From: an uncultured Candidatus Saccharibacteria bacterium | GTDB lineage: Bacteria > Patescibacteriota > Minisyncoccia > Portnoybacterales > UBA2143 | DNA length: 64,000 nt | NCBI GenBank assembly: GCA_964594155.1 | Contig: CAZQLH010000002.1 | Coordinates: 44,324 to 108,323, forward strand | Direction of reading: 5' to 3' | Shown: positions 3,922-51,865 of the stretch, one piece after another | Layout: each line of letters starts with the position of its first letter | Position numbering within the stretch: position 1 is the stretch's first letter | Program-made: the position numbers and the translations under genes | Notes under the pieces: model-generated | The model's database searches: none | What the model was told of the DNA's origin: nothing | Seen by the model: the letters and a program-made list of their open reading frames with translations, nothing else

Positions 3922-5044
3922 TAACTTTAAAGTTATAAATATCCTCTTTTTTAATTGATTTACTGCCTACTCGGCAAGTGATATTTCTAAAATAATCAAT
4001 TCTTTCGTTAATTTGTTTACAGATAATTTCTTTTATCTGTTTATTTTTTTTATATTGATCTTGGACATCAAAAACGTAAAACATATCATTTAGAATATCT
4101 TCCCTTGCATTAACTAAACCACATTTTCCTACGCTTGCATTTCCCACTCGAACTACTGCAATTTTATAATCCTCAATTGTTTTGCCTAATGGAATTTTGT
4201 TTTTTGCAAGAATATTTTTAGCTGAAATATTGTTTTCTTTGTATGATTTTTGGACTTTTATGTTTTTACTTTCAAAATATTTATTTAACGGAACGCCTTT
4301 ATCATTTTCAACATATCCATTATTTTTATGAAAAATTACTTGTGGAATTAATTCTTCATTAAATTTATCTATATTAAATACTTCCTCATTCTTAATGCTG
4401 TTTTCGTATATTATAATTATTTTATCTTTTAATTTTTCGATATTAGCAAATATAGCAAAGCAACAAGGTATATTTCTATCAAACCAAATTTTATCATTTT
4501 GATAAACAATAATTGATGAAAAATATTTTAAAATTTCAATTTTAATATTTTTATTTTTATTTTTTATGAAGAAAGAAATAGGCAAAACAAAACCAATGGA
4601 AGAATTTTCATTTTTTAAATGCTTTAATGATTTTAATATAAAAGCATTTTCAATTTTTTCTTTTTCTTTTTTCATTTCTATCTTTGTTAAATAATCAATT
4701 AGCGAGACTTCTGATTTTAAATAATTTTTTGGAAAAAAATAACTTTCTTTTAGATTATACTTGCTAAACGGAGGGTTGCCCACAATAAAATCATATTTAT
4801 TTTGGACTGATAGATTAAAAAAATCAGATGGTTTTTTTGTTAATTCTGGGTCTATTTCACAATCATTAGTATTTTTAAATCCTTTTTCTTTTAAAACTCT
4901 AACAAAATTACCTGTTCCAGATGAAGGTTCTAATATTTTTATATTTTCATTGTATTTTTTATAACTAAATAATAAATCTAATAGTTTTTTAACTATTTCG
5001 ATTTTCGTAAAATATTGACCTAAAATTTCTTGTTTATTTATCAT
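3914..5044 (-). CDS. N6-adenine DNA methyltransferase, gamma-class (M.TaqI-like)
   Basis: GQYFT, ILEPSSGTGNF (motif I) preceding VGNPPFSKY (motif IV NPPF), with a C-terminal TRD-like region. Confidence 0.8.
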   Translation of the reverse strand: MINKQEILGQYFTKIEIVKKLLDLLFSYKKYNENIKILEPSSGTGNFVRVLKEKGFKNTNDCEIDPELTKKPSDFFNLSVQNKYDFIVGNPPFSKYNLKESYFFPKNYLKSEVSLIDYLTKIEMKKEKEKIENAFILKSLKHLKNENSSIGFVLPISFFIKNKNKNIKIEILKYFSSIIVYQNDKIWFDRNIPCCFAIFANIEKLKDKIIIIYENSIKNEEVFNIDKFNEELIPQVIFHKNNGYVENDKGVPLNKYFESKNIKVQKSYKENNISAKNILAKNKIPLGKTIEDYKIAVVRVGNASVGKCGLVNAREDILNDMFYVFDVQDQYKKNKQIKEIICKQINERIDYFRNITCRVGSKSIKKEDIYNFKVII

Positions 5045-5685: not shown

Positions 5686-5890
5686 GTTTTTTAGTTTTTA
5701 AGATTTTTATTAAATCTTCACCCTTAAATCTCCTCAGACCATTAAATTTAATTGAAGGTATTTTATTCTCGGCAATATATCTTTTAATAGTGACTGGCGA
5801 AACCTTTAAAATTTCAGCCACTTCTTCAGTAGTATAAATTTGATTTTTATCCACAGTCATAGTAATATTGAAAGTATCAATTAGTATCAT
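5666..5890 (-). CDS. Excisionase/MerR-type HTH DNA-binding protein (possible controller)
   Basis: 74 aa. EEVAEILKVSPVTIKRYIAENKIPSIKFNGLRRF resembles an HTH_17 excisionase-family domain. It overlaps the MTase by 20 nt, suggesting an operon. Confidence 0.6.
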   Translation of the reverse strand: MILIDTFNITMTVDKNQIYTTEEVAEILKVSPVTIKRYIAENKIPSIKFNGLRRFKGEDLIKILKTKKHGKKLG

Positions 5891-41983: not shown

Positions 41984-42010
41984 AAAAAAACCGGCTATCA
42001 TAAGCCGGTT
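41984..42010. terminator. Hairpin terminator (T-tract on the minus strand)
   Basis: aaaaaaaccggctatcataagccggtt. Confidence 0.5.
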
Positions 42011-42196
42011 AAATTATTTCACTTAACGTTTACGTGTATCTGATGTTTCTTGCCGGATTCATCAGTATTTGCGTACATTTTAGCACATTCGTCGACTGTT
42101 TGAATAAGCTTTGGTTGTACGCTATTCGGAGGCAAGAAATATGGGCGGAGCAAAAGGACATTCCATTAATTTACATTTGAGTCCTTTTTGTGTAGC

Positions 42197-42239
42197 CAGA
42201 TATGCGTTGTTATACTTGCTGTTTTTTGGAGGCAAATTC
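42197..42239. repeat. Intergenic element IG1: cagatatgcg...ttttttggaggcaaattc. The 18-mer at 42222-42239 is the exact reverse complement of 43163-43180.
   Basis: Direct sequence comparison. Confidence 0.7.
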
Positions 42240-42291
42240 CCACCCAAACGTCATAAAAATTTTCTGATTTTACACATAGACCTCTTAGCAA

Positions 42292-43116
42292 TTATTTTTT
42301 AGCTGATATCAAGTAATGTTTTCTAGGGTAATAATCATCGTTTCCGATTGCTCTGCTATTATACTCCTTTTCTAGTTTTTCGATCTCTTGTATTAGTCCA
42401 TTCTGTAAATCCGAATTGTTTAAATTTTTGATTCTTCCTTTCGCCCATTCTAAACGTTGCCTAAATTCAATATCTATTTCCTCTTTACTTTCAAAAAATT
42501 GAGTATCATTAATTTGTAGCCCTGAATTTTTTATCAATGGAATGATCCAATCTGACGGATACTCAAAAGTTCTGATAGTTGGAAGAAAGAGAGTCAACGA
42601 TTTCGCGATCATCATATACAAATTTACTATCTCCGTCAGATCTCTAGGATTTCTTTTAGAAAGTTCAGGATCACCCTCAATTTTATCCATAGAAATATAA
42701 TCGAATTTAGGCTCATATCCCCAATAAGCTTCTCTGTCTATAAATATGACTTCACCACCTTTTTTCAAAAATTTAAACAATGCCTTGAAAGTATCGGAAA
42801 GCCTTGAAGGAGTAATCTCTCCAATAAGATAATCAGCTAAAATTAAGTCAAAAGTTGAATCACTAAAGGTAGAACTTTTTGAAATATCACCATATTTTAA
42901 AGTGTAGTTTTCATAACTCTTGTTGATTAGCTCTTGATTTGCTTGTTCACCCTTCCTTAGATCTCCTTCATATGCGAGCAATGTCAAATGCTCTGGATTC
43001 CTTTGAGCGAGAAACCATGCACTAGTTCTACCTGTTCCAGCGTCTAAAACAGATTTACCATCAAGAGATTTTCCTTTAAAATAGTTTTCTATATATTGAA
43101 ACTTTTGACTGATCAT
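42292..43116 (-). CDS. Class I SAM-dependent methyltransferase
   Basis: VLDAGTGRTSAW motif I; 274 aa. Confidence 0.65.
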   Translation of the reverse strand: MISQKFQYIENYFKGKSLDGKSVLDAGTGRTSAWFLAQRNPEHLTLLAYEGDLRKGEQANQELINKSYENYTLKYGDISKSSTFSDSTFDLILADYLIGEITPSRLSDTFKALFKFLKKGGEVIFIDREAYWGYEPKFDYISMDKIEGDPELSKRNPRDLTEIVNLYMMIAKSLTLFLPTIRTFEYPSDWIIPLIKNSGLQINDTQFFESKEEIDIEFRQRLEWAKGRIKNLNNSDLQNGLIQEIEKLEKEYNSRAIGNDDYYPRKHYLISAKK

Positions 43117-43162
43117 AATTTTAAAAATAGTTGCTAAGAAAACTTTTCCACCATACCTTCAT

Positions 43163-43269
43163 GAATTTGCCTCCAAAAAATGGCGTATAACGTTTCTGGA
43201 TATGCGATGTTGCGATAGCAATATGGGTGAAGCGAAGCGGAACCGCATATCCAGTGTTATGTGATGTAG
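43163..43269. repeat. Intergenic element IG2: 18-mer gaatttgcctccaaaaaa, a hairpin with arms ggatatgcg/cgcatatcc (loop containing gcgatagc and gcggaac), then gtgttatgtgatgtag
   Basis: Seen in the sequence. It is homologous to the elements at 45729-45830 and 44813-44866. Confidence 0.7.
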
Positions 43270-43320
43270 TGAAAAACATTCCTTAGTTATTTATAATTTT
43301 TAGTAATTTACATCCTTGTT

Positions 43321-44748
43321 TTAATAGCTTTTAGCAAAATACCAGTCATGTTTTGCCTCTTTTCCTGTTATAAAACATTTACTATTTTTAGGATTACTGT
43401 CTTCAAAATGTTTTGGTAAAACTCTTGATACCATAGAAAATTTTTCTTTCAATAATTTTTCTGATTCTACACTTTCACACCAGCTTGCTTCAAAAAAGCC
43501 AACTTGATCTTTAATATCATGTATACTTTCAATCCTGTGTATATGATACGTTGCAAATTCCTGAGCTTGCTGAAATAAGTTATTTTGAATGCTTTCAAAT
43601 AGTTGGGGTATAATAGAATCTAATTTTGCTAAATGTATTTTTTCTTTTGAATTTGTATCTCTTCTAAAAATTGTTAATTCGGATGAGTCTAGTTCTTTTT
43701 CACCAATTTCAATCCTAATAGGGACACCTTTTACTTCCCAATAATTAAACTTAAAACCAGGAGTCAATTTTTCTCTAATATCAATTTTTGTTCTATAGTC
43801 AGAAAGTTTTGATTCTATTTCTTTTGCAAATCCGATTATTTTATTTTTATTATTCTCTTTGAAAATTGGAGTAATTACAATTTGGATAGGGGCAATGTTC
43901 GGTGGCAAACGAAGTCCTGAATTATCACCATGAGTCATAATAACCGCACCTATTGACCTCCAGCTGAATCCCCAGGAGTTTTGATGGCAAAAATGTTGCT
44001 TTCCATCTTCACCAAGATATTTAACATCAAAAACTTTAGAAAAATTTGTTCCCAAGTAATGACTTGTGGCACCTTGAATTGCCTTACCATCTTTAACCAT
44101 AATTTCTGTTGTTTTTGTTGTGACCGCACCTGCAAATTTTTCCGCTTCAGACTTTTTTCCTGCAATTACAGGTATTGCCATGAATTCATAAATATCTTTG
44201 TAGATATTTAACATTTGATCCACTTCGTTCCTGGCATCTTCTTCGTTTGCAAAAACAGTATGTCCCTCTTGCCATAAAAACTCACTCCACCTTAAAAATG
44301 GTCTTGGACGTTTTTCCCATCTGACAACATTGTTCCATTGATTTAAACGAAGTGGTAAATCTTGATAGCTTTGTATCCATTTAGAATATGTTTTATACAT
44401 TGCTGTTTCGCTGGTTGGTCTAATAACTAGCTTATTCACTAATTCTTCACCACCTCCATGAGTTACAACTGCTAATTCAGGAGAAAATCCCTCAATATGC
44501 TCTTTCTCTGCTTCCAAATTTTCAATAGGTACAAAAATTGGAAAATAAACATTTTCTACTCCAGTAGCTTCAATTCTTTTGGATAACTCACTTTTAATTA
44601 GTTCCCAAATTTTGTATCCGTATGGTTTAACTATTCCGCAACCTCTAACTTCGGAAGTTTCTGCAAGGTCAGCTTCACGAACTACATCATGATACCATTG
44701 AGAAAAATTTTCTTCTTGCTTGGTGATTTGTTTTTTATCGAATTTCAT
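43321..44748 (-). CDS. proS: Proline--tRNA ligase, archaeal/eukaryotic type
   Basis: FSQWYHDVV...GCGIVKPYGYKIWE N-terminus and class II motifs, with a C-terminal zinc-binding domain; 475 aa. Confidence 0.85.
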   Translation of the reverse strand: MKFDKKQITKQEENFSQWYHDVVREADLAETSEVRGCGIVKPYGYKIWELIKSELSKRIEATGVENVYFPIFVPIENLEAEKEHIEGFSPELAVVTHGGGEELVNKLVIRPTSETAMYKTYSKWIQSYQDLPLRLNQWNNVVRWEKRPRPFLRWSEFLWQEGHTVFANEEDARNEVDQMLNIYKDIYEFMAIPVIAGKKSEAEKFAGAVTTKTTEIMVKDGKAIQGATSHYLGTNFSKVFDVKYLGEDGKQHFCHQNSWGFSWRSIGAVIMTHGDNSGLRLPPNIAPIQIVITPIFKENNKNKIIGFAKEIESKLSDYRTKIDIREKLTPGFKFNYWEVKGVPIRIEIGEKELDSSELTIFRRDTNSKEKIHLAKLDSIIPQLFESIQNNLFQQAQEFATYHIHRIESIHDIKDQVGFFEASWCESVESEKLLKEKFSMVSRVLPKHFEDSNPKNSKCFITGKEAKHDWYFAKSY

Positions 44749-44812
44749 AATTAAAGAGTAAATTACTGAAAATTATTTTAAAAAGAGTTTTTCACTATTT
44801 CACATAATGTTT

Positions 44813-44866
44813 GCGGCTATGCGTCTGTACTTGTATGACGTATAGCCGCTGTTAGCTGATGTAATT
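44813..44866. repeat. Intergenic element IG3: 13-bp hairpin gcggctatgcgtc/gacgtatagccgc followed by tgttagctgatgtaatt
   Basis: Seen in the sequence; related to IG2 and IG4. Confidence 0.6.
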
Positions 44867-44870
44867 AAAT

Positions 44871-45695
44871 TCAATTCAAACTTGTAACGTAATTTCTAAA
44901 AATTCCCATTATTTTTTTAGTATTTGGTCCGACACTACCATTTCCTACACGTTTACCATCAATGTTGACTACGGGGATTATTTCTTTGTTGGTTGCAGTA
45001 ATAAAAGCCTCAGAAATTCCTTTTAGCTCCTCAACGCTCAAATCTCTTTCCTCGATGTCAAAATGTTTTTTTGAAAGTTTAATAACTAAGTTTCTTGTCG
45101 TACCGAATAAGATATTCTGTTGGGGCGTGATTAGCTTATTGTTTTTGATAACGAAAAAATTGCTTGTTGTTGCTTCTAGAACACATCCCTCATAAGTATA
45201 CAATATTTCGAAAGCGTTTTTTTGTTTTTGTAAACCTTTTAGAGTTAACGCGGTTAAATAATTTGTTGTTTTAGCTCGCGGAAAATCCCTTTTATAATTA
45301 TGTGTAATAATTTTTATCCCCCTAGAGTAAACATGACCGGGTAGTTTCTCAAGCTTGCTGACTAATATATAAAAAGTAGGAGAGAATTTACCGGTATGTT
45401 TTTCTTCAGACCCACCAGTTAATACAATTCTTATATTTGATTCTTTATACTTATTTTTAGAAAGCAATTTTTTTATTATTTTTTTAATTTCAATATCTGT
45501 TGCCGGAATTTTTAGATTAATTGCCTTGGCGGAATTCTTAAGTCTTACCAAGTGTTCATCAAATAAAAAAACTTTTCCATTGTAGGTTCTCAAAGAATCA
45601 AAAACCCCATAGCTTCTTAATAATCCGAGGTCTGCCAAATTAATCGCAGCTTTATTTTCTGGCAGAAATTTTCCATTTAAATAACAAATTTTCAT
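44871..45695 (-). CDS. Class IV (fold-type IV PLP) aminotransferase, branched-chain/D-amino-acid aminotransferase family
   Basis: MKICYLNGKF start and EATTSNFFVIKNNKLITP...LFGTTR motifs. Confidence 0.7.
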   Translation of the reverse strand: MKICYLNGKFLPENKAAINLADLGLLRSYGVFDSLRTYNGKVFLFDEHLVRLKNSAKAINLKIPATDIEIKKIIKKLLSKNKYKESNIRIVLTGGSEEKHTGKFSPTFYILVSKLEKLPGHVYSRGIKIITHNYKRDFPRAKTTNYLTALTLKGLQKQKNAFEILYTYEGCVLEATTSNFFVIKNNKLITPQQNILFGTTRNLVIKLSKKHFDIEERDLSVEELKGISEAFITATNKEIIPVVNIDGKRVGNGSVGPNTKKIMGIFRNYVTSLN

Positions 45696-45728
45696 TGAAT
45701 TGAATTTAATTATTTCAGCTAACGTTCC

Positions 45729-45830
45729 GGCATATCTGAAGTTTTTTGTGGAGCGATAGCGGAACAAAAAATTTGGGAGAGCATTTTTCGGAGAAAAGTG
45801 CGAACCAGATATGCCGTGTTATGTGATGTA
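45729..45830. repeat. Intergenic element IG4: hairpin arms ggcatatctg/cagatatgcc (loop containing gcgatagc and ggaac), then gtgttatgtgatgta
   Basis: Seen in the sequence; homologous to IG2. Confidence 0.7.
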
Positions 45831-45899
45831 CCTGTTTTCCTTCAATCCGTCTTAGCGGATTGCTCTTAAAAAGAAAGAAATGGATTTGATTTTTTCCCG

Positions 45900-45948
45900 T
45901 TTGGGCGAGGGGCAAGAGGGGCTGGGGGTGAATTGCCCCTCGCCCAAA
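45900..45948. repeat. Perfect 16-bp GC-rich hairpin tttgggcgaggggcaa / ttgcccctcgcccaaa immediately 3' of the 635-aa ORF
   Basis: Seen in the sequence. Confidence 0.65.
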
Positions 45949-45955
45949 CACCTTA

Positions 45956-47863
45956 TTATTCTTTTGTTCGGTAATGCTCCTCAATAATTTTGTGTCCGGT
46001 TGCAACGAGTTCATGATATCCATGATTTGCTCTTGGGTCTTCGCTCATATTGTGAACATGGCGATCATCAAAGCCAAGTAAATCACCTTCTTTTTCTGAT
46101 GTGTCGGCTTGCCCGATGTTATGTCTAGTTTGAAATTCGTGAATAGCGGTTGTTGGAGTGCCGTCATAGAAAACAAGATGTTTTGGTTTTTCGTCTGGGT
46201 GTTGTTCAAAATATGTTTCCCAATATTCTTTGGCTGTTATAGTGTTTTCTGCCCTTTTCCAGTTTGCACTGGCAGATAGTAATATGGATCGCGCAGCATC
46301 TTCTTCTGTTTGATCTCCATAACTCCATTTGTTGCCCTTGTACAAATACATGCCTATTTTGTCGTTTGATAAAGTCTCATTTACTACATCTTCTGCCGTT
46401 TCTTCATCGAAGCCGAGTGCAATCATTTCTTCTCTCATAACACTAATAAAATCTCTTAGCATATTCTGTCGTTTTGAATAATCTCTTTCGTCTGAATATG
46501 CTTTGTACGCTTTTATAGACGGTGATTCTTCCGTTAAGCTCGTTGCCCACACAACAAAGGCAGAAACAAGTTTTTCGTCTTCCACCATGACTCTTTTTGC
46601 CTCACCATCGATTGTTTTAATTTCGGAAGCATATTTTGAGCCGGTTTGCGGGTCAACGGGTGTGTTCTCGGGAAGAAAAACTACACCTGCGTCAACTGGA
46701 ATCCCTGGATTGTCTAGTGTTGCAGGCCATACAAAAACATCGTTCCATTTTGTTTCACTTTGCGGTTTTGTGAAGTCCTTTTCCCAGCCATTGAAAGCAT
46801 AGTCATGTTGTGATGCCAGAACGTCAGAGGGGTACAAAAAGAAAACCTCGTTACTTTTTTCACCACCATAATATCCGTCAGCCACTATTTGAGCGGCAAA
46901 ATGGACAGCGGTTTTGTCGGGATAATTTGGAGCAGTTGCAAGTGAATGATTGAGTTGAGCGTTGAGCCGTTTCTTAGCTTCCTCCTCGTCTTCTGCTTGT
47001 AGCGCCCAATCTTCAACAAATTTTTGTATGGATGCTTCATCTCTTGCGAGCAAACCATCTCGGACTGCCATTGGTGGACGAAGCAGTTTTTGATCTCGCA
47101 ATACGCTCGTTAATCCATCGTGAAATTCCTGCAAACCAGCAGAGTGATAGACCATAGCGTTATGATCTCGAAATCCTTGTCGGGTAACATGCGAAAGAAA
47201 ATGCGGATTCAGCCTGCGCCATAGAGCAATGTATTCTTCCGTGCTAAGTTCGGCAAGCACTTCTGGACGAAGTAGTTCTCGTTTTTCTGAGTTCGACAAT
47301 GGCATTGTTTCCATTTTGGCGTAGTACGCTTCAAGCATTTTTTCTGGGTTGGGCAACTCTGCTTGTTTTTGAGCAAGTTTTTCTAATTCATCACGAAGTG
47401 CAAAAGCTTGTGAAGTAAGTTCTTCCATTTCAGCGTCCATTGTTGCGATTTCTGTTTGCATCTCTGCCGCTGATTTGTCCTTGATGCGGAAAAGTTTTTT
47501 GAGTCGTGTGGCAATTGTTTCAAGTCGTTGTTCCAATGCCAAAACTTTTTCAGCTTTGAGTGCGTCCAGTTCTCTAGCTTTTTGTTCTTTTTGTCCGAAC
47601 GATTCTGATTTTCCAGCAATACCTTCACCAACTGTGGCTGCACGTGTTCTCACCTCTGAAATTTCAGCTTCAACAGTTTGACGACCTTCGATGTCGTATT
47701 TTTGAGATATAGCGTGAGGGTCAAGCAAAGTACGTTTAATTTGCTCAATAGTTTGAGCAACAACTTCGGTTGTTTCTTGTGCAGTCTCAGCTTCTGGCGT
47801 GGGTTCGCCAGTAGGTTTTTCGGCGTGAGCTTGTTGTGTGTGTCTTTGTTCTTGGTTATCCAT
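45956..47863 (-). CDS. Hypothetical protein (635 aa) with a coiled-coil N-terminal half, strongly GC-rich and compositionally foreign
   Basis: About 45-50% GC by eye against about 33% for neighbours. The protein is rich in E/A/Q/T/R and poor in K/N/I, unlike the rest of the window. No motif recognised. Confidence 0.55.
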   Translation of the reverse strand: MDNQEQRHTQQAHAEKPTGEPTPEAETAQETTEVVAQTIEQIKRTLLDPHAISQKYDIEGRQTVEAEISEVRTRAATVGEGIAGKSESFGQKEQKARELDALKAEKVLALEQRLETIATRLKKLFRIKDKSAAEMQTEIATMDAEMEELTSQAFALRDELEKLAQKQAELPNPEKMLEAYYAKMETMPLSNSEKRELLRPEVLAELSTEEYIALWRRLNPHFLSHVTRQGFRDHNAMVYHSAGLQEFHDGLTSVLRDQKLLRPPMAVRDGLLARDEASIQKFVEDWALQAEDEEEAKKRLNAQLNHSLATAPNYPDKTAVHFAAQIVADGYYGGEKSNEVFFLYPSDVLASQHDYAFNGWEKDFTKPQSETKWNDVFVWPATLDNPGIPVDAGVVFLPENTPVDPQTGSKYASEIKTIDGEAKRVMVEDEKLVSAFVVWATSLTEESPSIKAYKAYSDERDYSKRQNMLRDFISVMREEMIALGFDEETAEDVVNETLSNDKIGMYLYKGNKWSYGDQTEEDAARSILLSASANWKRAENTITAKEYWETYFEQHPDEKPKHLVFYDGTPTTAIHEFQTRHNIGQADTSEKEGDLLGFDDRHVHNMSEDPRANHGYHELVATGHKIIEEHYRTKE

Positions 47864-48169
47864 AATTTTGAAGTTTAATCTGTTAATTATAGCTTAGATT
47901 AAGGCTAATATCAATCAAAAAACGTTTTCGTAGCGACCAGCGGGAGCGGAGAAAACACCTTATTCCCCCCTCTATAAAAAATAAAAAATCAAATCCATTT
48001 TCTTTTAAAAGCTTGGGCAATAGCCCAAAAAGGAAAACATGTATTTCACATAACTCGTTTATATACAATCTTTTTATATATAATTATTATTATTTGTATA
48101 TTATATACAATTTATGATATAATCTACAAATAATAACTTCATTAATATTTTAACAAAATACATTTATTT

Positions 48170-48985
48170 ATGCAAGAATATTTAATCCAAACAAAAAACG
48201 AACTAAAATTAAGAAACTACAGCATAAGAACAATAAAAAGTTATCTTTTGTGCTTAAAAGAATATTTTTCTTTTATTGAAAAAGATTTTGAAAAATTAAA
48301 TGTTGATCAAATAAGAAAATTTCTCTTAAAAAAACAAGAAAAAGGATATGCTCCTCAAACAATTAATCTTTATCTTAACTCAATAAAATTCTTTTATCGT
48401 GAAATTATTAAATCTTCTAATAATATAGATCTTAAATTCGCTAAAACAAATAAAAGATTGCCTGTTATTTTATCTCGGAAAGAAATTAAAAAAATTACAG
48501 AAAAAATAAAAAATAAAAAACATAAATTGATTATCTCTTTAACTTATGGGGCTGGTTTAAGAATCAGCGAAATAATTAATCTTAAAGTAAAAGATATTAA
48601 TTTAGAAGAATTAACTATTCATATTAAACAAGCTAAAGGCAAACAAGATAGAATCACTATATTCCCTGAAATACTAAAAAAAGATATTGGCATCTTAATT
48701 GCTTTAAAAGATATGAATAACTATATTTTTGAGAGTAATCGGGGCGGCAAACTATCTATGGGTTCTCTTCAGCAAATATTTAAAAAGGCGTTAAAATTAT
48801 CAAAAATTAAAAAACAGGCTACTTTTCATTCTCTACGACATAGTTTTGCCACTCACCTATTAGAAAATGGAACTGATGTTCGCTATGTCCAAGAATTATT
48901 AGGCCATCAAAATATTAGAACAACTCAAATATATACTAAAGTTACCAATCCTAGTCTTAAAAACATTAAAAGCCCTTTTAATTAA
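48170..48985 (+). CDS. Tyrosine site-specific recombinase (XerC/XerD/phage-integrase family)
   Basis: C-terminal HSLRHSFATHLLENGTDVRYVQELLGHQNIRTTQIYTKV carries the R...HxxR...Y catalytic residues; 271 aa. Confidence 0.8.
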   Translation: MQEYLIQTKNELKLRNYSIRTIKSYLLCLKEYFSFIEKDFEKLNVDQIRKFLLKKQEKGYAPQTINLYLNSIKFFYREIIKSSNNIDLKFAKTNKRLPVILSRKEIKKITEKIKNKKHKLIISLTYGAGLRISEIINLKVKDINLEELTIHIKQAKGKQDRITIFPEILKKDIGILIALKDMNNYIFESNRGGKLSMGSLQQIFKKALKLSKIKKQATFHSLRHSFATHLLENGTDVRYVQELLGHQNIRTTQIYTKVTNPSLKNIKSPFN

Positions 48986-51017: not shown

Positions 51018-51103
51018 GCCGGAGTGATGGAATTGCCAGACATGCACGACTTAAAATCGTGTGGGCTTAGCCCGTGCGGGTTGGAATCCCGCCTCCGGCA
51101 CCA
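51018..51103 (+). tRNA. tRNA-Leu (anticodon TAA)
   Basis: Acceptor GCCGGAG/CTCCGGC, anticodon stem CACGA/TCGTG with loop CTTAAAA, a long variable arm and an encoded CCA. The T-loop TTGGAAT is unusual. Confidence 0.7.
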
Positions 51104-51109
51104 AAAAAT

Positions 51110-51865
51110 ATGGAAGGTTTATTTACTAAAGCTATCAATTCCCACTTCTTTAAAGAATGGAATTCAGAAATGAGTTATGTTTTAGGATACATAACAGCCG
51201 ATGGATGTATATCTATGGATAAAAAAAGAAAAAATCCATTTTCTCTTAATATAACTTCTGCTGAAAAAAAACATTTATATAAAATAAGAAAAGCACTTGG
51301 ATCAACTCATAAAATAGGTAAAAAAATAGGAGGATACTCTGGTGGGATTTCTTACCAAATTCAACTTCGTAATCCAGTTATTTGTAATAATCTTATAAAT
51401 TTAGGTATCTTACCTAGAAAGACATACAATTTAAATCCAATAAAAGTCCCTAATAAATATTTTTCTGATTTTGTTCGGGGATTTTTTGATGGCGATGGGA
51501 CAGTTTATATTTACACAGTTAATAGTACACCACAAATAAAAACTGAATTTGTAAGCACAAGTTTGCCTTTTATAACTGAATTTAATAAAGATCTCTGTAA
51601 AGGACTTAACATTCCTCAAAAAGCTATTCACAAACAAATTCCTAAAATAAAAAATAAAGTTGTTATGTATTCTATTTGTCTATATGTTGATGATTGTGAA
51701 AGATTAAATAAATTTATGTATCAAAATAATCCATCCTTATATCTCCCACGAAAGTATAAAGTTTTTGAAAAATGGAAAACTATTAAAAGAAGAAAATACA
51801 CGAAACAAAATTACCCATCAAAAGTTGGCTGGCAATTAAATCAAAATTACTTAAGAACAAACTAA
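51110..51865 (+). CDS. LAGLIDADG-family homing endonuclease, free-standing
   Basis: Two dodecapeptide motifs, LGYITADGCI and VRGFFDGDGTVYIY. The ATG lies 7 nt after the tRNA CCA. Confidence 0.75.
   Translation: MEGLFTKAINSHFFKEWNSEMSYVLGYITADGCISMDKKRKNPFSLNITSAEKKHLYKIRKALGSTHKIGKKIGGYSGGISYQIQLRNPVICNNLINLGILPRKTYNLNPIKVPNKYFSDFVRGFFDGDGTVYIYTVNSTPQIKTEFVSTSLPFITEFNKDLCKGLNIPQKAIHKQIPKIKNKVVMYSICLYVDDCERLNKFMYQNNPSLYLPRKYKVFEKWKTIKRRKYTKQNYPSKVGWQLNQNYLRTN

Follow-up and report, generated by a model that had tools for sequence, protein, structure and literature searches.

The 64-kb window analysed here (the whole stretch of 64,000 nucleotides, from contig CAZQLH010000002.1 of an uncultured Candidatus Saccharibacteria bacterium) contains the gene of an Xer-like tyrosine recombinase and, divergent from it, an array of four minus-strand units which, in order from the recombinase, carry a 635-aa open reading frame (ORF), a class IV aminotransferase, a prolyl-tRNA synthetase (ProRS) and an S-adenosylmethionine (SAM)-dependent methyltransferase. 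The methyltransferase gene is bracketed by an 18-nt inverted repeat, TTTTTTGGAGGCAAATTC at 42222-42239 on the plus strand having its exact reverse complement at 43163-43180 (18 nt, 100%). Each of the four units ends in a palindromic site that resembles the attC sites of integrons, and it is very probable that one long hairpin site of this kind, belonging to the methyltransferase cassette within an integron-like platform, has the two 18-mers as its outer parts. Coordinates of all features are collected in Table 1.

The 18-mer pair

These two copies of the 18-mer are the only ones in the window, even when up to 3 mismatches are tolerated. The perfect repeat, and the position of the 825-bp ORF (42292-43116, minus strand) entirely inside it, had been noted in a preliminary description of the sequence, and both are borne out; the repeat is exact and non-random. 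The same description extended the similarity to about 44 bp. Similarity does continue past the 18-mers, but as separate blocks and not as a continuous 44-bp repeat. The motif GTTATAC is common to both sides (42209-42215 on the plus and 43185-43191 on the minus strand) and is separated from the 18-mer by TTGCTG (6 nt) on one side and GCCA (4 nt) on the other, a difference of 2 nt, while a second pair of inverted-repeat blocks (17 nt, 94%) adjoins both ends of the ORF. The string cagatatgcg, which had been counted as part of the repeat, is not complementary in register and represents the inner (L) boxes of two different recombination sites.

No target-site duplication, which had been proposed as something to look for outside the repeats, is present beside the 18-mers, where the flanks TTGCTG and TGGCGT differ, or beside GTTATAC; the GTT shared at the flanks is part of the conserved spacer. 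In the GTDB genomes (596 Gb) the 18-mer has 62 scattered single matches in unrelated taxa and no pair, and in the IMG/VR viral contigs two single matches and no pair. Since these matches are scattered and never paired, in genomes and viral contigs alike, the 18-mer is not a common motif, and its reading as a chance or genome-wide sequence was rejected.

Two small ORFs run across the 18-mers (53 aa on the plus strand, from ATG 42142 to 42302, and 52 aa on the minus strand, 43121-43279), and both encode FFGGKF. They were considered as paralogous mini-genes and rejected, because they cross recombination sites and their common peptide is the translated repeat. The 52-aa gene is called by metagenome pipelines (e.g., L003 9838-9996) and is probably spurious, since it crosses both the hairpin site of the ProRS cassette and the 18-mer. 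A separate, perfect 17-nt inverted repeat, ATTGTTTAAATTTTTGA / TCAAAAATTTAAACAAT, lies within the methyltransferase coding sequence (42415-42431 and 42765-42781, arms 333 nt apart); by a rough estimate it is unlikely to be due to chance even at 30% GC. In a sister species (L076 2022-2051, minus strand) the first cassette begins GTTAGGCGAAATTTGCCCTCCGCC, resembling the reverse complement of the 18-mer (GAATTTGCCTCC), which may be a coincidence.

Palindromic sites and cognate cassette ends

Read on the minus strand, the palindromic sites have the design nnnnTAAC - a - 11-nt L'' - loop of 15 to ~150 nt - 11-nt L' - (g/a)aac - GTTAnnnn, in which the outer boxes are R'' and R'. The site of cassette 1, for example, is CACATAAC a CGGCATATCTG...CAGATATGCCG gaac GTTAGCTG. 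The L boxes vary between sites yet stay complementary (CGGCATATCTG/CAGATATGCCG, GCGGCTATACG/CGCATAGCCGC, CTGGATATGCG/CGCATATCCAG), pairing at 11/11 positions without bulged bases; the conserved features are instead a spacer of unequal length on the two sides (1 nt versus 3-5 nt) and an AAA/CAT bubble. About 30 hallmark sites show this attC-type order of R''-L''...L'-R', with AAC/GTT outer boxes and variable, paired inner boxes.

Cassettes start with TTAnnnG followed by a private extension, which is the reverse complement of the stretch before their own palindrome. This relationship was measured in 11 cassettes, taken from the window and from two sister species. With the R boxes excluded, the 110 nt that follow the upstream R' were aligned to the reverse-complemented 110 nt that precede the cassette's own R''. 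Cognate leader/trailer pairs gave a mean local score of 40, against a mean of 18 for non-cognate pairs (95th percentile 23). The R boxes follow the same rule: in 10/11 cassettes, bases 2-8 of R' fully complement the R'' of that cassette, the methyltransferase cassette agreeing at 6/7 positions (GTTATACG vs GTTATACT), and base 1 of R' (G or A) goes with the upstream cassette. Thirteen further cassettes from distant species included 12 in which the R boxes matched at 7/7 positions, so that the rule holds fully in 22/24 cassettes overall and at 6/7 positions in the remaining two. For the extension, a clear cognate match was seen in about 8 or 9 of these 13.

The 18-mers occupy the place of this extension, the methyltransferase cassette reading G|TTATACG-CCA-18-mer at its 5' end and 18-mer'-CAGCA-AGTATAAC, then L'' ACGCATATCTG, at its 3' end. 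The palindrome that follows has a variable part of ~150 nt and an L pairing of 9/11. The corresponding spacer, IG1, had been taken for an inverted copy of the IG2/3/4 family. It proves to have the same build as the other spacers, namely an R''-L''...L'-R' palindrome preceded by the upstream cassette's 3' terminal repeat, and is the 3' end of the methyltransferase cassette together with its own unusually long palindrome. IG1 appears inverted because each cassette's 5' end complements its own 3' end, and terminal complementarity like that of IG1 is seen in the other three cassettes too.

The sites go with the recombinase across many Patescibacteria. When 47 loci were retrieved with the recombinase profile and equal amounts of DNA were scanned for each combination of side and strand, 21 hairpin sites were found on the divergent side and cassette strand, and 3, 0 and 2 in the other combinations. 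At some sites R'' and R' are complementary in place (e.g., CACATAAC...GTTATGTG; L099 ~3946-4066, L105 ~5764-5839, L095 ~2682-2846, L114 and L126), an arrangement not expected from neighbouring cassettes. They may represent hairpin elements that were never split, or else neighbouring cassettes with a common box variant.

Crossover position and cassette movement

Natural variants show where the cassettes are exchanged. The ProRS gene (window 43206-44804) is missing, with precise boundaries, in L001, L009 and five similar contigs, which represent a strain with 7 single-nucleotide polymorphisms in 5.2 kb. The resulting junction is ...GACGCATAGCCGCAAAC A|TTAT|ACGCCATTTTTTGGAGG (...AAAC A|TTAT|ACGCC; also given as ...GCCGCAAAC A|TTAT|ACGCCATTTTTTGG), in which the aminotransferase site has contributed the A and the start of the methyltransferase cassette the ACGCC, the two partners sharing TTAT only. 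A 95%-identical ProRS with the same cassette ends occurs in another sample (L176) among different neighbours; the site of another cassette lies before it and another cassette start (G|TTATTCAAAATCAC) after it, and compensatory changes are present in the L boxes of this ProRS cassette. In a 78% relative, proS lies in the ordinary DciA-proS-mreBCD context without such sites. Three contigs of a second species have an identical recombinase and three different gene sets, two of them (L078 and L079) diverging directly after the common ...GAAC G|TTA, and in the sister species, whose recombinase is 87-88% identical, the conserved flanks are the same and the cassettes completely different.

From the ProRS-less junction, L176 and the L078/L079 pair it follows that exchange takes place within (G/A)|TTA, which is the resolution of the comparison, as it does at the G|TT of integrons, and that a cassette moves whole, together with its terminal repeats. 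The same variants and the R-box rule assign TTRRRY to the downstream cassette.

The ProRS is of the normal Parcubacteria type and behaves as a mobile cassette (43191-44807; L001, L009, L176, L174). Among the cassettes in the arrays of other species (L078-L080, L081) are genes of restriction-modification and defence, encoding N6_N4_Mtase with ResIII, EcoRI methylase, GmrSD, AAA_13 and HNH proteins, and one of these arrays also has an IS200/IS605-type Y1 transposase.

The recombinase and the attI-like site

More than 5,000 homologues of the recombinase, 65-70% identical, were found from across Patescibacteria, and its putative catalytic set R131, K153/K156, H220, R223, H246 and Y255 (R-K-H-R-H-Y) is invariant in the homologue alignment. 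It belongs to the Xer-related 'Cand' subgroup of Smyshlyaev et al. (PMC8138268). The protein passes the NCBIfam model NF040815 (XerA_Arch/integron integrase; 222.6 bits, cutoff 220) and stays under the cutoff of the integron integrase model TIGR02249 (211 bits in two stretches, cutoff 265). The best solved relative is VchIntIA (2A3V, E 3e-43). In that alignment residues 3-194 match IntI 4-200 and residues 199-270 match IntI 246-317, leaving ~45 residues of IntI (201-245) unmatched, a gap that corresponds to the missing IntI-specific insertion (I2). The archaeal XerA structures 4A8E and 5HXY align with the recombinase end to end in a single stretch. Model score and structural matches thus place the recombinase with the Xer type, and both the 2A3V gap and the TIGR02249 score set it apart from IntI-family integrases with an I2 helix. 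In one locus (L008 585-1377) the recombinase is called as two ORFs (152 and 107 aa); a frameshift, pseudogene or assembly error is possible.

A TTCGTATAtAAACGA|GTTAnnnGAAAT-like motif (...AAACGA|GTTAnnnGAAAT) is located upstream of the recombinase start in 25/29 loci, at ~70-175 nt and mostly near 115 nt, and the array leads away from it (21 sites on that side versus 0-3). In the window this attI-like site has a dif-like layout, ATTGTATATAA-ACGAG-TTATGTGAAAT, and we take it to resemble E. coli dif, with its XerD arm TTATGTTAAAT. A role as the dif site of the replication terminus was considered and found no support, there being no GC-skew switch at 48 kb within the 64-kb window and dnaA lying ~6 kb from the L081 locus.

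Folding and proposed mechanism

When the 3' end of each cassette is joined to its own 5' end at the crossover, as in a free circle, the junction folds into one continuous hairpin. The predicted top-strand energies for cassettes 1-4 are -46.9, -33.3, -32.5 and -42.4 kcal/mol, compared with -26.9, -16.4, -16.9 and -34.5 kcal/mol for these sites within the array. Greater stability of the bottom strand is predicted for all four cassettes (for the methyltransferase junction, -50.2 kcal/mol versus -42.4 for the top) and for 44/56 sites overall (Wilcoxon p 3.5e-5). The predicted circular junctions are ...CACGTAAACG|TTATACGCCATTTTTTGGAGG for the methyltransferase and ...ATCCAGAAACG|TTATGTGAAATAGTG for the ProRS cassette.

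In the mechanism that we propose, the site of the free circular methyltransferase cassette would consist of the extension' (18 nt), a small bubble, R'' (AGTATAAC), L'', the variable loop, L', AAAC, R' (G|TTATACG), a bubble and the extension (18 nt). The cut would fall between bases 1 and 2 of the R' box. On insertion TTATACG, CCA and the 18-mer, all 3' of the cut, would go to the 5' end of the cassette ahead of the gene, and the remainder of the hairpin would stay 3' of the gene. The ORF would seem bracketed by terminal inverted repeats because one hairpin site is split by insertion, and the repeats exist because complementarity continues 10-100 nt past the R boxes.

The I2-less Xer-like enzyme is presumably the catalyst and, by analogy with integrons, the folded bottom strand would be its substrate, a single strand exchange on the folded strand being resolved by replication as in the integron or CTX-phi reaction. 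The extension may stabilise the hairpin of the excised cassette, so that free cassettes would be more recombinogenic than resident ones. Equally, it may be a relic of the palindromic element behind each cassette's site, a reading with which the in-place self-complementary R boxes at some sites are compatible, as unsplit elements.

Several points weigh against this interpretation. In IntI, recombination of single-stranded attC is considered to require the I2 insertion (PMC7790495), which the window recombinase does not have; the link between recombinase and sites is drawn from their association across loci. The site scan required L-box pairing, and pairing counts are therefore not independent evidence; the L boxes have none of the extrahelical bases known from classical attC sites. 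About 4 of the 13 distant cassettes show a weak extension repeat or none at all, so that the extension may be non-essential. The methyltransferase site itself is unusual in its long variable part (~150 nt) and has two L-stem mismatches; in the DNA fold of its plus strand 42024-42041 pairs with 42196-42212 across the ~150-nt middle, which is weakly better than shuffled sequences (z -2.45). Finally, no variant without the methyltransferase cassette, or with this cassette relocated, was seen among the retrieved contigs and the homologue contigs.

Layout of the array

The preliminary description placed the likely array boundary at IG1. The array does end there, but on grounds other than an inversion: past the last R' box (GTTAAGTG) lie a terminator-like hairpin and, beyond it, a conserved, convergent DUF4446 gene. 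A sister-species array (L073) also ends at an equivalent terminator hairpin, and the flank beyond aligns to the position of the DUF4446 gene. Terminal inverted repeats are found in cassette 1 (45815-45842 / 48030-48057) and in cassette 2 (29 nt, 93%, 44851-44879 / 45695-45723), and the ends of the ProRS cassette are TTATGTGAAATAGTGAAAAAC / GTTTTTCACTACATCACATAA. The best promoter-like match of the region, TTGATA-17-TATAAT at 47914-47886, lies in the leader of cassette 1.

Table 1. Features of the recombinase locus and its cassette array (window coordinates).
Feature	Position	Strand	Basis or remarks
Tyrosine recombinase, 271 aa, Xer-like	48170-48985	+	Pfam Phage_integrase and SAM_4
attI-like core site ATTGTATATAAACGA|GTTATGTGAAAT	48043-48069	-	crossover after G at 48054
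Cassette 1	45723-48053	-	635-aa ORF 45956-47863; attC-like site 45716-45825
Cassette 2, class IV aminotransferase	44808-45722	-	Pfam Aminotran_4; attC-like site 44801-44858
Cassette 3, ProRS	43191-44807	-	ProRS 43321-44748; attC-like site 43184-43263
Cassette 4, methyltransferase	42027-43190	-	bounds: crossover after G 43191; G 42027 of terminal R' box
18-mer, 5' copy	43163-43180	-	cassette-specific extension after R' GTTATACG (43184-43191) and 3-nt spacer CCA
Second inverted-repeat block, 5' copy, TCTTAGCAACTATTTTT	43123-43139	-	17 nt, 94%, with the 3' copy
13-codon upstream ORF MKVWWKSFLSNYF	43121-43162	-	read from sequence
SAM-dependent methyltransferase ORF, 274 aa	42292-43116	-	Pfam Methyltransf_31/25/23
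Second inverted-repeat block, 3' copy, TCTTAGCAAYTATTTTT	42283-42299	+	overlaps methyltransferase stop codon
18-mer, 3' copy	42222-42239	+	cassette strand reads GAATTTGCCTCCAAAAAA, just upstream of R''
Methyltransferase attC-like site	42020-42216	-	site scans and fold
R'' AGTATAAC	42209-42216		
L'' ACGCATATCTG	42197-42207		
L' CAGATACACGT	42032-42042		followed by AAAC
Terminal R' GTTAAGTG	42020-42027		
Bidirectional terminator-like hairpin	41989-42010	both	array end, past last R' box

The methyltransferase has only 7 homologues at E<1e-10, which are distant, lie on short contigs and are all without the 18-mer; the protein itself is present on at least 24 near-identical metagenome contigs. Upstream of this gene, 7 nt separate the GGAGG of the 18-mer from the ATG of the 13-codon ORF, and 4 nt lie between the stop of that ORF and the methyltransferase ATG. 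The N-termini of the homologues favour ATG 43116 as the methyltransferase start, and an N-terminal extension or frameshift from ATG 43162 was rejected, as the homologues begin like ATG 43116.

The first cassettes of different species (window 47864-48053 and 45826-45955; L073, L078, L080) have common long leader and trailer modules around unrelated genes, including a GGGCTATCGCCC hairpin, GGGGnATAAGGTGTTTTCTCCGC, ATTTATTTATAAGGGG and the trailer CACCCCTTTAATTCCCCTC. The window has ~33% GC and 17 tRNA genes in 64 kb, and an Rfam scan of it returned tRNAs only. An ORF at 51074-51865, LAGLIDADG-like in matching loci (faint Pfam hits), overlaps tRNA-Leu 51018-51103; matching metagenome loci also have a GIY-YIG gene.

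Alternative explanations

The most serious alternative concerns the chemistry. The recombinase could be the cell's Xer acting on duplex DNA, the attI-like site its dif, and the cassettes exploiters of Xer in the manner of integrative mobile elements exploiting Xer (IMEX) or of pdif modules, with the palindromes and terminal repeats left as historical footprints without a single-strand role. An enzyme that passes the XerA model, is without I2 and shows throughout the phylum the high conservation expected of a housekeeping enzyme would suit such a reaction, as would the dif-like attI site. The L boxes, however, vary while keeping their complementarity, as expected of a folded substrate and not of a duplex binding site; the TTAT shared by the ProRS excision partners is too short for the canonical 6-8 bp overlap and two strand exchanges; hairpin stability differs between the strands; and a terminus is not obvious, with no skew switch in the window and the L081 locus close to dnaA. 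The preservation of structure while sequence varies, the shared core of 4 bp and the bias between strands would fit a reaction like that of the integron or CTX-phi better than duplex Xer recombination, which we regard as unlikely. The identity of the repeat is unchanged by either chemistry.

The remaining alternatives would give the 18-mers a different identity. In one, the 5' copy serves as the Shine-Dalgarno sequence of the 13-codon ORF, which is coupled to the methyltransferase, and the 3' copy (CCUCC) pairs with it, sequestering the ribosome-binding site or protecting the mRNA ends. The spacing of 7 nt between GGAGG and ATG 43162, the stop of the upstream ORF 4 nt before the methyltransferase ATG, and the lack of a Shine-Dalgarno sequence at that ATG speak for this device. 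Against it stand a Shine-Dalgarno frequency of 3/47 window genes, which equals the background rate, the equally good terminal repeats of the other cassettes, which have no such motif, and the greater stability of the hairpins on the non-transcribed (bottom) strand. As an explanation of the repeat the mRNA device is very improbable; a role in the mRNA is compatible with the split hairpin site as at most a secondary use, and would leave the repeat unexplained.

The preliminary description had offered a MITE-like (miniature inverted-repeat transposable element), insertion sequence (IS)-derived or cassette unit. Its cassette option stands, as the 18-mers belong to the ends of a gene cassette of site-specific recombination. 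Perfect inverted repeats around a single ORF would suit transposon ends that mobilise the methyltransferase gene, or invertase sites at which it is inverted. Yet duplication-flanked terminal repeats in multiple genomic copies, as expected of a MITE or IS, are not what is found: the window has its two copies and no target-site duplication, no paired copies occur in the 596 Gb of genomes, no transposase is encoded in the cassette, and the repeat lies inside the recombination boundaries. An invertible switch would occur in both orientations in the population, and all 10 of the 10 retrieved loci (24 contigs read) have the gene in the same orientation relative to the flanks. We therefore consider a transposon or invertible segment scarcely credible.

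Relation to known systems

Functionally, the platform would be an integron by the evidence of its sequence, which shows an att site beside the recombinase, an array running in one direction, attC-like sites and boundaries of the G|TT type, and departs from integrons in its recombinase; it is a variant with long cassette-specific extensions added. As in class 1 and Vibrio cholerae chromosomal integrons (IntI/attI/attC), the recombinase is divergent from an adjoining att site, the cassettes run in one direction, hold mostly single genes and vary in content between strains, and each has an imperfect palindrome with variable, complementary inner boxes and outer boxes like RYYYAAC / GTTRRRY (here nnnnTAAC / GTTAnnnn). 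Crossover likewise occurs after the first base of the GTT box, the rest of R' travelling at the 5' end of the cassette. The differences are a recombinase without the I2 insertion and below the integron-integrase cutoff, L boxes without extrahelical bases, the asymmetry coming here from the 1-nt versus 3-5-nt spacer and the AAA/CAT bubble, and complementarity that runs 10-100 nt past the R boxes. Furthermore, the promoter-like sequence lies inside the first cassette and not in intI or attI, the host belongs to the Patescibacteria, and a housekeeping ProRS is carried as a cassette.

With Xer/dif systems and their exploiters (CTX-phi, other IMEX, XerS/difSL) the locus shares an Xer-type tyrosine recombinase without accessory insertions and a dif-like core site directly upstream of the recombinase gene. 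In the XerS/difSL system, too, the site adjoins the gene. The integrating form of CTX-phi is a single strand folded into a hairpin, joined through one strand exchange (PMC3442271). The locus differs from these systems in that a terminus location is not evident from the window skew or from L081, in its arrays of many small gene cassettes in place of phage or island genomes, and in the hairpin site with cassette-specific arms that each unit possesses. In Acinetobacter, genes with Xer-type sites on either side make up pdif modules, which are thought to be mobile (PMC7399989). The inverted-repeat look around each gene is common to those modules and to the cassettes described here. The sites that flank pdif modules are complete 28-bp duplex sites in alternating orientation, whereas the flanking sites of these cassettes are in direct orientation and the inverted repeat results from splitting one hairpin site.

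Our literature search turned up no account of integrons, or of arrays resembling them, in the Candidate Phyla Radiation (CPR)/Patescibacteria; its coverage was incomplete, and an earlier description is possible.

Implications

A wider proposal, for which we judge the chances to be evenly balanced, is that Patescibacteria have a phylum-wide integron built on a plain, I2-less Xer-like recombinase, either as an independent invention or as a surviving early stage. Its hairpins would extend past the R boxes and give each cassette private terminal repeats, possibly a latch that favours folding and recombination of excised cassettes, and it would mobilise even an essential ProRS. Acquisition of the I2 helix is believed to have brought integron integrases the capacity for single-strand hairpin recombination (PMC7790495). 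If the proposal is true, both the descent of integrons from Xer/dif systems and the minimal requirements of hairpin recombination would become directly testable on a cassette platform whose enzyme is Xer-like and I2-less. The cognate-end rule is a simple way of delimiting cassettes in metagenomes, and it explains the assembly breaks at these loci. The arrays hold strain-level differences in restriction-modification genes, resistance-type genes and even an aminoacyl-tRNA synthetase; if the proposal is true, a main route of gene flux would have been identified in CPR bacteria, whose genomes are tiny and whose gene exchange is poorly understood.

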